Source: Escherichia phage W70. From it: a stretch of DNA of 64,000 nt. The stretch lies in sequence record OP778610. One strand, given 5' to 3'. Position 1 is the first letter of the stretch; the number at the start of each line of letters is the position of its first letter. This document shows positions 19,450 to 41,933 of this stretch, piece by piece. The translations under genes and the position numbers were made by a program. The notes beneath the pieces are model-generated. The model searched no databases and was not told where the DNA came from. It worked only from the letters and a program-made list of their open reading frames with translations.

Positions 19450-19971
19450 TCAGAAAGGTGCTTCGTCGTCGAAATCTACATCTTCAACTTCCGGTACATC
19501 AGGAATGTCACCTGCGGATTCAACGATACTCTGTTGTTCCCACGTAGGTTCCTCTGAAGGTTGGTCCATTTCTTCCATAACCTTCTTGATCTCTTCCTCT
19601 TGCTCACGCAGGAAGTTATCATCCGGCTCAGGAATATCTTCCTCTTTAATATCTGAACGAGTGAGATCACTGTTTTGTTCAGACAGAGGTTGAATCTCTG
19701 CTGCTTTAGGCTTAAAGTCTGGAGAACGATGATCATCTTCTGGATGAGCGGCATACCACTCACGAAGAGTTTCATAAGGACTCTCTAAGAAGCCCTCTGG
19801 CGGTTCCAGATAATCACCCGTATCAATGTCATAGAACACAGGGAATTTACCAGCACGACCGTGTTTACGGTCATCCAGAATAACAAAGTAAGAAGTGTTA
19901 CGTTGTTTCATCGGGAGTTCTGGATCTTTGTTACGTTCAATTCCCCACATATAGTAAGTATTCTTTATGTC
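19450..19971 (-). CDS. primase-helicase (T7 gp4-like), exon 3 with acidic C-terminal tail
   Basis: GIERNKDPE...VILDDRKHGRAGKFPVFYDIDTGDYLEP parallels T7 gp4 C-terminal region; ends DVDFDDEAPF. Confidence 0.6.
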   Translation of the reverse strand, partial: DIKNTYYMWGIERNKDPELPMKQRNTSYFVILDDRKHGRAGKFPVFYDIDTGDYLEPPEGFLESPYETLREWYAAHPEDDHRSPDFKPKAAEIQPLSEQNSDLTRSDIKEEDIPEPDDNFLREQEEEIKKVMEEMDQPSEEPTWEQQSIVESAGDIPDVPEVEDVDFDDEAPF

Positions 19972-20808
19972 CAGGCTACTCGCTAGGTAGCCTCGGTGTG
20001 CTAAGACACCCGCCCATACTTTCATACAGGAACAGACTATATCATCACCTTTCGGTGCTCTCCACTTCGGAACCGCTTGGTCCCTACGCCTTTCGGCTAG
20101 TCGTTGAAGATTTTGCATATTCAGGATACATGGTCCAAGTATACAGATTGGCAATTTCTTTCCAATCCCTTTTGCTTCGGATGTTTAGAACAACCGCCCT
20201 TTTAACTTGAATGCCACTACTTTCGGCTATTCTCTTTGCAGTCCATCCCTCTGAAAGTAACTGGCATATCTTATGCACGTCGTTTTCAGAAAGTCCGGTA
20301 CTGTAATGATCTTGCCCTCTAATTGGTAATTTGTTTTCTATCGAGTGTCGAAGATTTTCCTCTTCTGTTACCCACTCAAGGTTATCTTTATGATTGTTCA
20401 ACTTATTACCGTCTTTATGATTTACCTCTGGTAAATTTAAAGGGTTTGGTATATAAGCCTTCGCGACCATCCTGTGAACATACTCAGGCTTCCGCTTACC
20501 ATTTAAGATAACATTAACAACAAAATACCCTGTACCCTTACTTAATGAATTTTTAAGGAATCTTCCTGAAAATTCACTAAAAACTTGTCCATCTTCAGTG
20601 ATAAAGTATGGACTGTTTTCTTCTATTCTTACCATAAGTCCCCTCTTTCATGGGACCAAGATCTAGAATATGCAACTTTCCTGCTGATTACCCAATCCTG
20701 TACCTTTTTAAACATTCACGCTTGCCTTTGCAGACTACGTTGTAGTGTTACAGGCTCTAAGGGCTTCCCAGCAATTCAAAGAGTTTTAGATGCGCTCTAC
20801 TGCTGTTA
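19972..20808 (-). mobile_element. group I intron in primase-helicase gene, HNH-ORF-containing
   Basis: Stop directly after exon 2; core GACTAGCCGAAAGGCGTAG and GATATAGTCTG; 3' boundary approximate. Confidence 0.6.
20084..20635 (-). CDS. HNH homing endonuclease (intron-encoded)
   Basis: LPEVNHKDGNKLNNHKDNLEWVT HNH-type motif. Confidence 0.7.
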   Translation of the reverse strand: MVRIEENSPYFITEDGQVFSEFSGRFLKNSLSKGTGYFVVNVILNGKRKPEYVHRMVAKAYIPNPLNLPEVNHKDGNKLNNHKDNLEWVTEEENLRHSIENKLPIRGQDHYSTGLSENDVHKICQLLSEGWTAKRIAESSGIQVKRAVVLNIRSKRDWKEIANLYTWTMYPEYAKSSTTSRKA

Positions 20809-21399
20809 ACGCATCATTGCACGGCTACCAGCAAACTGCGCTGACTGGACTTGACCACCAAATTCATGAGGCTTGCCAGATTCAGGCTTATTAAGGTGAC
20901 AGAAGCAATAATAAGTAAAGCCAAGCTCTTTTGCCAGTTTGGAGATCTCATCCGAGAATCGTTCCAGTTCCTGGTTAGCTTCAGAAGCACTCATACCTTG
21001 CACAAGACGAGTGATCGGGTCAATAAAGATATCTTCACAACCTTCTACGATCACTGCGTGACGGATAGCACCTTTCAGTTCATCCCATACTGCACGACCA
21101 TAGTTGTTATAATAGATAACACTATCACCAACTTCATCAGTAGCTTTGATCAGTTCTTCTTGCTTAAAGTATCCACGTTGACCTTCAAAAACTTCATTGC
21201 CCCAAATGTCACGGTAAGTTCCATCTTCTTGAGGAATCATTACCTTTTCGGCATTAACAAAGTCTTTATGATAACGCTTACCTGCGATCTTCTTACAAGT
21301 GATCTCGTTCTCTTCTTCAAACTTAAACACCGCAGCTTTTGACTTTTCAATACCCGTGATGTGTTCAACCATTTGGTTAAGAAGTTCAGACTTGCCCAT
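20809..21399 (-). CDS. primase-helicase, exon 2 (helicase core)
   Basis: Starts MGKS (Walker A remainder); IFIDPITRL Walker B-like; FCHLNK and QFAGSRAMM helicase motifs. Confidence 0.65.
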
Positions 21400-21688
21400 T
21401 TTCACCGTTATGTTCGACAGGGTTCGCTACTCCCTGCCCGTTCTCTTACGAACTGCTACATGTCCCCATGCAGACCAGACTATATCTTCAACCTGTTTCC
21501 AGGTGCTATGCACTTCGGACCGCTTGGCCCTACTCTACTCGATTCAAGAGTCTAGCTCTTGTCTTTCGATAGTCGTTGCTCCTTCCTTTTTCAAGGCTTG
21601 GATCAGGATTACGTGTTCTACGCTTCCCCTGAGTTCACATAGTATTTAGTCGAGGCATCTCTGCCAAGGCTGGCTAGACTTAATGTTT
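21400..21688 (-). mobile_element. group I intron in primase-helicase gene, ORF-less
   Basis: About 290 nt between exon 1 ...IGAG and exon 2 MGKS...; core GCTAGACTC and GAAGATATAGTCTGG; no ORF. Confidence 0.6.
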
Positions 21689-22624
21689 ACCAGCACCGAT
21701 GAAGTAACCTTCACCTGGACGACGACCCAAGGTAAGCTTGGTCATGGTGGGCCAAGGGAACTTCTTGCCGAGTTTAGGGATCTCATGTGCCTTTTCGCGG
21801 AACTGTGAATAAGTCGAGAAACCATCAGGCACATATTCTTTTGGCTTCATTGCAGCCCAAAACAACTGATCAGAAAGACCTTTGTTATACATATCGCAAG
21901 GGTCCATATCTTCTGGAATATCCACGACCTTCATTTGTGGAATTACAGAGTATACCGCTGCAACTGCATCTTTACCTTTCATGATCCCTTTGGCCTTCTC
22001 TGCTTCTGTCGCACGGTCAGCATCGAAAGCTACGATAATCTCTTCAAACTTACTCAGAAGCTTATAGTTATTCTTCTGTGATAAGTTTTGCACGGCATTG
22101 GATGTACCGTTAGAGATAGATACAACTGTGAAGTTTGGTTTACGAGTGGAACCATCCTTCGGTTTGTACTTCTCTGTCAATACCTGCCACAAGATTGCAG
22201 CATCGTATTCACCTTCAGTGATAAAGATCATACGTTTGGAAGACTTGTTTGCACCTTCCAGACCAAACATATCACAGGCTACAGATTGGAAACCGATAGT
22301 TGTAAAGTGCCCTTTCTGTTGCTTAGGGATCGTAAGATCACGCTTTTTAAAACCTACAACCTTACCTTCCAATGTGTACGGAAAATAATGTGCTTCTGGA
22401 GTCATACCGTCTTTAGCTGACAACTTGGTACGAATACCAAATCGTTTAGCTGTCTTTTCGTCGATACCACGCTCAGGGATACTTTTACACGGGTAAGTCA
22501 ATACATCTTCAACTGTTTCTTCCACACGAGACACACCGCCGCCATAATTACGTGCCACCGAAGCTTTAGGGTTTTTATGTCCAAACTTATAACCGCCAAA
22601 CAAACTTTCGCCAATAGTGCTCAT
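21689..22624 (-). CDS. primase-helicase, exon 1 (TOPRIM primase domain)
   Basis: TOPRIM motifs ITEGEYDA and FDADRA; ends GEGYFIGAG (start of Walker A). Confidence 0.7.
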
Positions 22625-31597: not shown

Positions 31598-31944
31598 TTT
31601 ACCTCCATCATAAACACTTTAACTTTTCGTATCTCTAATCTTACTTTATTAGAGCCTTGAAGTCTATTTCTTTTTTCAACCGCATCATTAATATCACCAT
31701 AAAAGTAGTGATCCTTGCCTATTGTCGGTATTCCATTACCGCCTTGCATAGCCAGTGTATACATTTCCTTTCCACCTTGCAACCCTTTTGATACCTTTTC
31801 TTCAAAATATTTATTGAATTGGGTTGGTGAGGTATCAATCTTTGCATCTTCTTCCCATCCCATAACTTTATCCCAAAAACGGTCAATCTTGTCAAGAACT
31901 TTATTACTAATCTTTTTAATCTTCTTCAACATAATCTTCCCCAT
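31594..31944 (-). CDS. hypothetical protein
   Basis: 116-aa ORF. Confidence 0.45.
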   Translation of the reverse strand: MGKIMLKKIKKISNKVLDKIDRFWDKVMGWEEDAKIDTSPTQFNKYFEEKVSKGLQGGKEMYTLAMQGGNGIPTIGKDHYFYGDINDAVEKRNRLQGSNKVRLEIRKVKVFMMEVK

Positions 31945-32404
31945 TATTTATTTGGATACCGAAACGATTTTCGTTAGTGGAAAAGAAACCATTTTCCATG
32001 CGGCGAATCTCTTCTTTCATCACTTCCTGCATCGTTAATTTAAGGATTTCTTTGTTTAATTTTGGCTTAACTTCATGAAGCTTGTCAAGAAGTTTTTCCA
32101 TTTCTTCTTTTACTTTTTCTTCCTCATTTTCTATTTCTAATTGGTCCATCGCATCTTTGCAAACACAGCAATGACCTATTACTCTTAAAATGTGGTTTTG
32201 TATAGGTAATGCTTTTCTACCACAATAACCACAAAGAATAGAACCACCAGAGTTTCGGGCATCCACTGTCAATGTAGGTTTGGCCCCTTTTGCCTGAGAA
32301 TGCCAAGTCTTTTTGCCTTGGTAATCATACATAAAGAATTCATAGGATCTCTCATCAACGTGATCTTCGAGCATATGTAAAGTTCGTGTATTGAAATGTT
32401 TCAT
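31916..32404 (-). CDS. hypothetical zinc-ribbon protein
   Basis: CGYCG...HCCVC cysteine pairs. Confidence 0.5.
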   Translation of the reverse strand: MKHFNTRTLHMLEDHVDERSYEFFMYDYQGKKTWHSQAKGAKPTLTVDARNSGGSILCGYCGRKALPIQNHILRVIGHCCVCKDAMDQLEIENEEEKVKEEMEKLLDKLHEVKPKLNKEILKLTMQEVMKEEIRRMENGFFSTNENRFGIQINNGEDYVEED

Positions 32405-32526
32405 CTTTAAACCTCTCGTCGTTTGTATGAGCTAACTATACGAGAACTTGAGAGGAAGATCAATACTTGATTTGCATTTTATTTTCATTATACTGTGCAC
32501 ATCTAAAACGAGAAGGAGTGTAATAA
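32405..32526. promoter_or_regulatory. divergent promoter region
   Basis: AT-rich 120-bp gap between divergent gene arrays; TTGATT...TATACT-like elements; GGAG RBS before 32527. Confidence 0.4.
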
Positions 32527-40019: not shown

Positions 40020-40838
40020 ATGGCCTATCGTAAATTTGACCCACTAATCATTTATGAAGTTGTCCCAATGAGTGTCTCCAATCCTCATGGTTTGCAATCA
40101 CCTACTCCACTTGACCATAAGACAATGATCAGGAATGCAGAGTACACCTTAAGAGATCTTGAGAACGAAGAGATTGAAAGTGCTGTGCATGGATTGAAAG
40201 ACCTGATCCGTGAACTTGATACGGATGATTCTGTTCAAGAATATATTGAAAAGTCAGAGGCGCTAATCACGAAGTTTCATGAGTACCGCACTAAGGTATC
40301 GCGTATTCTTGATGAAGCTTTTGATCCTTCATCAAAAGACCCGATAAATGATGACAAGGCAATAACCTTACTCAGCCAAATAGCTGACGCTACTGACAGC
40401 ATGGACCCTGGTTTTGTAAGGGCTGATCATACCTGTGTAGATCAGTTTCCTTTAGCCTATCTTAAATCCAAAAAAGCATTCGGTAGTCTGGCTTTTGTCT
40501 GGGAGTATGAGAAAGATTCCCTTACTCGTTACATCAATCGGGTAGGTAAGAAAGATACTTCAGTTACGTTAAATATCTTTTGTGATGGTTCCTTGATGGT
40601 CCATAACAACTGGACAAAAGAGAGCATCCTCTTTGGTAAAGAAAGAGATCAGAAATTTAAACTAGTAAACTATATCCGTTTCGCAACAGAGGATAGTAAA
40701 ATGGGTAAGTCATTTAAAGAGGAGGACTTTAAAACTTTCTTTGAGGATTGGCTTTCCCCAACAGAAGAAGAGATCCAACTCTTCAAGGCTGTGAATGGGG
40801 ATGTTTCATTTGACCTGTACACACTCTTTAACGAGTGA
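40020..40838 (+). CDS. hypothetical protein
   Basis: 272-aa ORF. Confidence 0.55.
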   Translation: MAYRKFDPLIIYEVVPMSVSNPHGLQSPTPLDHKTMIRNAEYTLRDLENEEIESAVHGLKDLIRELDTDDSVQEYIEKSEALITKFHEYRTKVSRILDEAFDPSSKDPINDDKAITLLSQIADATDSMDPGFVRADHTCVDQFPLAYLKSKKAFGSLAFVWEYEKDSLTRYINRVGKKDTSVTLNIFCDGSLMVHNNWTKESILFGKERDQKFKLVNYIRFATEDSKMGKSFKEEDFKTFFEDWLSPTEEEIQLFKAVNGDVSFDLYTLFNE

Positions 40839-41136
40839 TATTTGTTTGCTAAAACAAATTCAGATTTCAGATCCAAAATCTATTTGAGATATTTCCCTGT
40901 GATATTTGTTTCATGGGGAATTTTCAGATTTCAATTTGAAATTCTATTTGAGATAAATTTAAGACTCTTGCCACCGTGTCACATCCATACTGTTTCATTC
41001 CTGCATACCCCGCACCACTAGATCAACTAAGCTGATGCCTCGCTTACAGACACACCCTTCAGATTCAATACGTTACTGCTCCAGTATACATACGATACAA
41101 AGCAAACATACGACACTCATGACCAGAATAATTTGA

Positions 41137-41303
41137 GAACTTGAGAGGTTTTTCATTTTTGAGATCGTAACCTGAAAACTGTGCACGAGAACTTGAGAGG
41201 TTTTTCGATACAGAGATTAGGAACTTGAGAGGTTTTTCATTTTTAAGTTTGCATTTGAAATTGAGAACTTGAGCTACAGGCCAGATACTTGAGGGGTTTT
41301 TCA
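41137..41303. repeat. direct-repeat (iteron-like) array, consensus GAACTTGAGAGGTTTTTCA
   Basis: Copies at 41137, 41189, 41221, partial 41265, variant 41285; irregular spacing. Confidence 0.7.
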
Positions 41304-41666
41304 AATTTCAGTTTCATTTCAAAATTGGAAAATTTTTTATATCCACAAAAATATAGGGCTTGTCAAGGTCTTTGATAAGAAATTTTCAGGAGGTGAGAAT
41401 TATTCTCATTTGCAGAATAACGGGCAGGGGTGGTGATTGCTTCGTGAAACCGTCCTCATCACCATGAATATATAATAGCACCGTTTTTGATTAGAAAGCA
41501 ACAACATTTTAAAAATATTTTTCGGTAAATTTTGGCCGAGCCACCGGCGATCCACCTTACAACCTGGCGGCGATGCCTGGTATGTTAGCCCCGCCTTTAC
41601 GCCGTGGGGATGGCGATTGTTTTCCTATGTAAGCATTATGGCCCCCTGGCGGGGCCGTTGTCAAGA

Positions 41667-41933
41667 TTATTTTTTGTTTTCTTGCCAGGCCAGGACACCT
41701 AACCAAAAAATAGGATAACCGCGTTTATCTTTTGGTATGTTGCTTTCCCCGCCACCGCCTTGCATCCATTCTACGCCACTGTTAAACATTTCAAGCTGAT
41801 AAAGGTCGGTTATCTTTGTATCCTTAAGGTTAAGGATTGTTTCAACCTTTAAGCCTGTTGCACTCGCCACTTGGTGGACCGTTCCACCTTGCCATTTTAA
41901 AGCGTGCATGAGGTGTAGTGTAGTAGTTGTCAT
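41667..41933 (-). CDS. hypothetical protein
   Basis: Isolated minus-strand ORF. Confidence 0.4.
   Translation of the reverse strand: MTTTTLHLMHALKWQGGTVHQVASATGLKVETILNLKDTKITDLYQLEMFNSGVEWMQGGGGESNIPKDKRGYPIFWLGVLAWQENKK

Follow-up and report, generated by a model that had tools for sequence, protein, structure and literature searches.

What is the function of a set of irregularly spaced direct repeats in a gene-free part of a phage genome? The question is raised by Escherichia phage W70, of which a stretch of 64,000 nucleotides (record OP778610; called the window here) was analysed. An earlier note on this DNA had described a gap of about 830 bp without a convincing open reading frame (ORF), and the gap indeed measures 828 bp (40839–41666), lying between two stop codons, one at 40838 and that of the next ORF at 41667. 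It contains no credible gene, no tRNA and, at gathering as well as relaxed thresholds, no relevant Rfam family. The repeats within it form an array (41135–41303) and, judged from the comparison of sequences described below, we put at roughly 0.7 the probability that these are docking sites for a phage-encoded, sequence-specific DNA-binding protein. By megablast, the region groups with A73, A7_1, A5-4, UPEC06 and LTH01 (92–96% identity). Together they form a small group of E. coli myoviruses of ~142 kb in the subfamily Vequintavirinae, for which we use the name "Septuagintavirus" from the isolation paper (PMC11370258), a paper without mention of repeats, promoters or an origin.

A repeat search placed GAGAACTTGAGAGGTTTTTCA at 41135, 41187 and 41219 and a degenerate version at 41283, all on the plus strand, with spacings of 52, 32 and 64 bp. 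A half copy at 41263 accounts for the spacings of 52, 32, 44 and 20 bp in the earlier note, which were reproduced. Its count of four to five copies was right in that the repeats exist, and is corrected to three good copies, one degenerate and one half copy of a motif of 14–21 bp. Copy 1 (41135–41155) consists of the 14-bp box GAGAACTTGAGAGG followed by TTTTTCA, and its full unit extends to ...TTTTTGAGATCGTAACCTG. Copy 2 (41187–41207), with a perfect box followed by TTTTTCG, has a unit truncated to 32 bp and is extra relative to the three-unit arrays of other genera. Copy 3 (41219–41239) reads AGGAACTTGAGAGG and then TTTTTCA. The half copy (41263–41273), GAGAACTTGAG followed by CTACAGG, lies 20 bp before copy 4 (41283–41303), which is AGATACTTGAGGGG followed by TTTTTCA. 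Cronobacter phage CR3 has the same layout, with GTACAG after a half copy that precedes a full unit by 20 bp.

The proposed search of the window with the 19-mer gave, at up to 3 mismatches, four matches, all located in the array (0.04 expected), and none of 100 shuffles gave four. Among the close relatives 7.9% of the sites in the array are variable, and within the boxes 4 of 84 positions, versus 17.9% in the neighbouring spacer (40963–41130). This spacer, which separates the array from a module A discussed below, is the most variable part of the gap, with ~46% G+C and no conserved ORF.

The irregular spacings rule out an array of clustered regularly interspaced short palindromic repeats (CRISPR), as had been argued before. 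The suggestion that the copies act as terminators was not supported, since a terminator scan found no G+C-rich stem-loop followed by a T run within 41130–41310. Folding of the array was no better than that of shuffled sequence on either strand (z = +0.70 and -0.09). The units were also considered as sigma70 promoters, on either strand, and rejected for want of a -10 element except possibly in copy 1; a -35-like TNGAAA is retained on their minus strand (own reading of the sequence), and a promoter scan of the array gave a single weak plus-strand match, TTGAGA-N17-GATACT, that is not conserved in CR3. A 79-aa ORF on the minus strand (ORF79, 41065–41304) is annotated as a coding sequence (CDS) in A73, A7_1, A5-4 and LTH01. 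However, it is judged not to be a gene, because its translation runs through the repeat copies in two frames (own reading), its substitutions among six relatives are spread 9/8/10 over codon positions 1/2/3, UPEC06 has an in-frame stop and neither Pfam nor PHROG gave a match; it had earlier been called an artefact for its repeats. With ORF79 free of constraint and RNA structure not in excess, it is at the level of DNA that the motif acts.

A search with the 10-mer core of the box detected one further perfect copy in the window (32446–32455), outside the coordinates of the earlier note. It is part of an isolated, perfect (14/14) box GAGAACTTGAGAGG on the plus strand at 32442–32455, in the divergent intergenic region between a replication-gene cluster on the minus strand (helicases, primase-helicase, DNA polymerase) and a plus-strand operon (HD hydrolase, MoxR-like ATPase, VWA protein ... 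272-aa ORF) that ends at the gap. According to an independent promoter scan, the replication cluster is headed by a leftward sigma70-type promoter, TTGATC-N17-TATAGT (32435–32463, minus strand), and it is the 17-bp spacer of this promoter that the 14-bp box fills. The plus-strand operon is headed by a rightward sigma70-type promoter, TTGATT-N16-TATACT (32467–32494), and the box lies ~53 bp upstream of its predicted start.

The complete genome of A73 (142 kb), assembled from three retrieved parts, was scanned for the box, counting matches with 0–2 mismatches plus the half copy at 3. The 14-bp box, GAGAACTTGAGRGG, was present at two loci only, the array and the promoter spacer, which are 8.7 kb apart; one 2-mismatch match elsewhere was unrelated. 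With a single promoter and one array, the box does not define a promoter class. In this it differs from the MotA boxes of phage T4, which occur in many promoters genome-wide, although these too are phage-specific boxes in sigma70-type promoters, upstream of the -10 element. When we compared the promoter with the array units, similarity was confined to the box, which argues that the link between the two is not one of simple paralogy.

Counterparts of the gap were found in CR3, where it follows a distant orthologue of the 272-aa ORF (23% identity), in PVP-SE1, the rV5-like FFH2, Klebsiella phage VLCpiM5a (M5a) and SSBI34, and in the phAPEC8-like phages PD06, KKP_3264 and KP2025. All gaps compared across genera have the same order of eight modules on the plus strand: module A, a variable spacer, an array of three direct units, one to five palindromes of the type TGAGAATnATTCTCA, a leftward promoter (P2), a conserved block of ~100 nt, a second leftward promoter (P1) and a small minus-strand ORF. 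The array is part of a gene-free control region of ~0.8–1 kb that has retained its position and module order throughout the Vequintavirinae and the phAPEC8-like Stephanstirmvirinae. In CR3, PVP-SE1, FFH2 and M5a, 139–142 bp separate the first box from the third, and the middle box lies 63–78 bp from the first; the array in the window measures 84 + 64 bp and has the truncated copy at 41187 as an addition between its units.

The array units are homologous across genera in their 3' half (...GTTTTTCnTTTT...ATCGTATT...), whereas the 5' box is lineage-specific. It reads GAGAACTTGAGAGG in this window, GGGTCTCGATCG in CR3, CB7 and F4M1E, GTACTCGATC in PVP-SE1 and FFH2, GGTTCTCGATCG in M5a and AATTATTTAAAG in PD06 and KP2025, and SSBI34 has three unlike boxes that bridge the window type and the CR3 type. 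The boxes of CR3 and F4M1E (TCTCGATCGAGA) are palindromic; the window box is without dyad symmetry. In CR3 the homologous promoter, TTGATT-N17-TATAGT, has GTCTCGATCG in its spacer and, within 50 kb, exact copies of GTCTCGATCG were present only in this spacer and in the three array units. Alignment of the promoter between the clade of the window and CR3 showed that the -35 and -10 hexamers are conserved and the spacer is exchanged. CB7 and F4M1E likewise have the Certrevirus box in the spacer of the homologous promoter, so that in all three phages conserved hexamers enclose the box of the own lineage. In F4M1E, 12–13 nt are identical between promoter and array; the promoter site is the full palindrome there, whereas most array sites comprise the centre and a single half-site.

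The best explanation for such a concerted change of the box at two unlinked loci is a reader that acts in trans and co-evolves with it, and because two coliphage genera carry different boxes, this reader should be encoded by the phage. Together with the restriction of the box to two loci, the concerted change supports the earlier suggestion that the repeats may be binding sites for a DNA-binding protein. In the model that we propose, a phage protein would bind the box. Bound in the 17-bp spacer it would repress the promoter of the replication cluster, and on the three to four same-orientation sites of the array the same protein would build a multi-site complex.

What the docked protein would do at the array is less certain. 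Tentatively, and at clearly less than even odds, we regard the array as an origin of the iteron type, or as a locus that controls one. Its initiator would be autoregulated and, like the Rep proteins of plasmids and P1, would restrain its own operon by way of the site embedded in the promoter. The array has the at least three same-orientation direct repeats of ~17–22 bp by which iteron origins are recognised. It is flanked by A+T-rich DNA (26–31% G+C at 40850–40999 and 41250–41399, versus ~40% for the window), and two conserved host-type promoters, P1 and P2, are directed toward it. We favour the origin because it accounts in one model for the direct repeats, the site in the replication promoter, the transcription directed inward and the fact that the array persists.

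Iteron origins whose initiator is autoregulated are known from P1 (RepA at oriR-incA), from the Rep proteins of pSC101, pPS10, F and R6K, and from lambda O at ori-lambda. As in these systems, several ~20-bp repeats in the same orientation are located in non-coding, A+T-flanked DNA, a related site lies inside a promoter (here the one heading the replication-gene cluster), and the repeat differs in sequence from lineage to lineage, which is what a cognate protein evolving along with it would lead one to expect. The full palindrome at the F4M1E promoter and the half-site plus centre in its array recall the operator and the iterons of Rep plasmids. The ori and crr of phage P4, two distant clusters of one octamer bound by the alpha primase-helicase, offer a parallel for one recognition motif at two loci kilobases apart, one of them a non-coding repeat cluster. 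However, the primase-helicase encoded in the window is T7 gp4-like (Toprim + DnaB_C) and not P4 alpha-like, and the second locus is a single promoter site and not a repeat cluster.

Several observations weigh against the docking array and, in particular, against its role as an origin. The spacing of 63–84 bp is far wider than that of classical iterons (~22 bp), and there are only three to four sites. The array and the promoter site are separated by 8.7 kb, and the promoter-embedded copy was not found in SSBI34, PVP-SE1, PD06 and KP2025; in PVP-SE1 the divergent region has different flanking genes and is therefore not a homologous site. Since the array persists in lineages without the promoter copy, it must have a function of its own. 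The phasing seen in the window (52, 32 and 64 bp, or ~5, 3 and 6 helical turns) does not hold in other genera, where spacings of 67 and 78 bp misfit, and helical phasing was dropped as a general argument. The boxes of SSBI34 differ from each other, so that strict sequence recognition is not universal. There is no recognisable Rep or initiator gene and there are no conserved DnaA or IHF sites: a DnaA box match in the A+T-rich stretch just after the array (ATATCCACA, 41339–41347; 8/9 of the consensus TTATCCACA) survives in A73, UPEC06 and LTH01 (as ATATGCACA), whereas A7_1 and A5-4 have it in degraded form. The GC skew has no switch at 41 kb and turns at ~32.4 kb and ~51 kb, and because these turns coincide with changes in gene orientation, GC skew was dropped as evidence for an origin; the skew analysis in the rV5 paper found only transcription-linked shifts (PMC3606486). 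This phage group is also without experimental origin mapping.

Moreover, no binder for the box was identified; a 162-aa and a 272-aa protein were looked at as candidates. The first gene behind the box-containing promoter (31916–32404, minus strand) encodes a zinc-ribbon-like protein of 162 aa in which a CxxC-x17-CxxC motif is combined with a coiled coil and an acidic tail. Its identity to gp107 of CR3 is 36%, and its N-terminal 75 residues are conserved in Certrevirus, in phAPEC8-like phages and in Pseudomonas phages such as PAK_P5 and KPP10. It had no family match and no PDB match by sequence and only six homologue clusters, its AlphaFold2 (AF2) model was poor (predicted local distance difference test, pLDDT, 48), and a scan of IMG/VR with the 162-aa family gave no confirmed loci. 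The neighbouring 272-aa protein, encoded in the operon that ends at the gap, is acidic, occurs in this clade only and gave no Pfam or PDB match.

In the window, the gene for the primase-helicase (19504–22624, minus strand) is in three pieces, while it is continuous in A73 (681 aa). A group I intron (RF00028, 21456–21721, 70 bits) lies between pieces 1 and 2, and an insertion of ~790 bp with a 183-aa ORF (20084–20635) between pieces 2 and 3.

The strongest alternative accepts the same binding array and gives it a purely transcriptional task, as an operator cluster, a roadblock or a titration sink, with no role in the initiation of replication. We consider this possible and almost as likely as the origin. 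Either leftward transcription from P1 and P2 would be halted or modulated at the array, ahead of the converging plus-strand operon into which it would otherwise continue antisense, or the array would buffer the free level of a repressor of the replication promoter. The site inside the 17-bp promoter spacer is in the classical position for a repressor and is the sole site with an obvious reading; the palindromic boxes of CR3 and F4M1E are like the operators of dimeric regulators; and the array, in which no intrinsic terminator was found, is situated between two conserved leftward promoters and the 3' end of the converging operon. The operator triplets OR and OL of lambda and the p4 array of phi29 are comparable, being clusters of three to four sites of which one overlaps a core promoter, and the palindromic Certrevirus boxes add to the likeness. 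However, the array overlaps no convincing promoter (a -10 element is lacking except in copy 1), its sites are far apart and in direct orientation, and the window box is not a palindrome. In addition, three units over ~141 bp persist without the promoter copy, which again indicates a function of the array itself.

It is unlikely that the repeats work at the RNA level, as part of a non-coding RNA transcribed leftward from P2 that might, for example, sponge up an RNA-binding protein or a nuclease. P1 and P2 would indeed transcribe the array, and the related phage PhiTE encodes a repeat RNA that counters an abortive-infection system of the host (PMC3475682). But the copy in the promoter spacer lies upstream of both predicted transcription starts and would not be contained in the RNA, there is no excess structure on either strand and no Rfam match, and the spacing is irregular and not tandem. 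ToxI-type repeats are head-to-tail tandem repeats of 34–37 nt that are transcribed as one RNA, and the pseudo-ToxI of PhiTE is located between genes 202 and 203 (PMC3475682), not beside phiTE_078/079, the homologues of which flank the gap in CB7. RNA repeats like ToxI or pseudo-ToxI were excluded by the irregular spacing, the copy in the untranscribed promoter spacer and the lack of a structure signal.

Lower still we rank the possibility that the region is a packaging (pac) site bound by the small terminase. GenBank records of several relatives start in or near it (LTH01 at about window position 41541, R7, VLCpiM5a and phi1_175008), although record starts are usually arbitrary. The boxes of other genera contain GATC, which brings to mind the methylation-sensitive hexamers of the P1 pac site, but the window boxes are without GATC. 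The gene for the large terminase is ~70 kb away in A73, binding by terminase would leave the promoter-spacer site that co-varies in two genera unexplained, and these phages are reported to be circularly permuted (PMC3475682). Finally, non-functional duplication debris, or repeats inside a real small gene, would fit with the CDS annotation of ORF79 in four relatives and with copy 2, which looks like a recent local duplication of 32 bp, but has been largely refuted by the 9/8/10 codon pattern, in-frame stop and two reading frames of ORF79, by the conservation of array position and geometry across genera and by the co-variation of the box with a distant promoter site, and hardly deserves consideration.

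Protein-binding repeat arrays are an already known kind of element; this one is new and conserved, and in the literature searched no description was found of the array, its lineage-specific boxes or its link with the promoter. The genome map of rV5, type phage of the same subfamily, shows a comparable gene-free region as a 'non-coding' box, said only to have 'contained no ORFs' (Kropinski et al. 2013, PMC3606486); repeats, a link with a promoter and conservation are not mentioned in that paper. In the rV5-like FFH2 the presumed counterpart of this box holds three GTACTCGATC units.

The rV5-like and phAPEC8-like myoviruses are widely used in therapy and biocontrol, yet their origin, their temporal switch and nearly all of their early proteins are uncharacterised. 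One promoter and one array, with natural specificity swaps between genera, define a small and testable cis-regulon. This offers handles for fishing out the cognate protein, for mapping the origin or the switch and for phage engineering, for example with origin-bearing plasmids or orthogonal operator–regulator pairs. If the array is merely the operator cluster of a regulator, it will be a useful annotation and no surprise.

The remaining modules of the control region are described in their order. Module A (40835–40962, plus strand) corresponds to the upstream pair of repeats of the earlier note and consists of two tandem units of 64 bp, 40835–40898 and 40899–40962. The units read GTGATATTTGTTT ... 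TTCAGATTTCA ... TCTATTTGAGATA, with internal palindromes such as ATTTCAATTTGAAAT and a repeated (A/T)TTTGAGA; by manual count, TTGAGA occurs ~8 times on the plus strand within 40839–41340. With 5.6% variable sites among the close relatives, module A varies less than any other part of the gap, and BLAST recognises it in Certrevirus at 73–77% identity (record L006, 2500–2600). It probably represents protein-binding sites of a second class.

Between the array and P2 the window has one copy of the palindrome, TGAGAATTATTCTCA (41394–41408), and two to five copies are present in CR3, PD06, FFH2, M5a and KP2025. In the records of relatives, palindromes are located at L009 1903–2019, L010 1996–2150, L011 1364–1415, L006 2987–3108 and L023 17925–18020. 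The consensus of the E. coli Fur box is GATAATGATAATCATTATC. The palindromes TGAGAATnATTCTCA / TGATAATnATTCTCA resemble it at 15–16 of 19 positions in PD06, FFH2 and M5a, whereas the single palindrome of the window reaches only 13 of 19, which is not exceptional. From this resemblance, the region could be under iron or Fur control, on which no literature was found.

The candidate leftward promoter P2 (41472–41501, minus strand) reads TTGCTT-N18-TATTAT with an extended -10 TG. It is our own reading, below the threshold of the promoter scan, but CR3 (TTGCAA-N17-TATATT) and other genera have a promoter at the corresponding position, and it faces the array. Consensus folding of both strands of the P2 block gave no supported structure. 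The leftward promoter P1 (41635–41664, minus strand), TTGACA-N18-CATAAT, matches 11 of 12 consensus positions and is conserved across genera. Downstream of it lies the conserved block of ~100 nt (41530–41628, minus strand), a candidate small RNA, to judge from its conservation and fold, without an Rfam family. This block is nearly invariant across the two subfamilies, and its consensus fold consists of a hairpin and a branched domain, with G-U pairs on the minus strand only and two pairs that covary. The non-coding stretch 41394–41670 (~280 nt) as a whole was found at ~71% identity in 316 phage records, in which it is mostly unannotated.

A broader idea, which we consider doubtful, is that the gap might be a deeply conserved and so far unrecognised control hub of the rV5-like and phAPEC8-like phages, combining an origin-like array, several boxes for the host's Fur and a conserved small RNA with its own promoter. 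A fast-evolving phage protein would then read the array and also gate the promoter of the replication genes, and, if true, the start of replication or the early-to-middle switch would be tied to the host's iron status.

Between the RNA-like block and P2 a direct repeat, TGTAAAGA-N3-TGTAAAGA, is present on the minus strand in CR3, PVP-SE1, PD06, M5a and KP2025 (L006 3196–3216, L009 2125–2145, L023 18118–18138); the clade of the window is without it. In A7_1 and A5-4, ~50 nt in the middle of the ~100-nt block (window ~41549–41600; end of L005) have been swapped for unrelated sequence, and the start of the LTH01 record in GenBank adjoins the breakpoint of this replacement.

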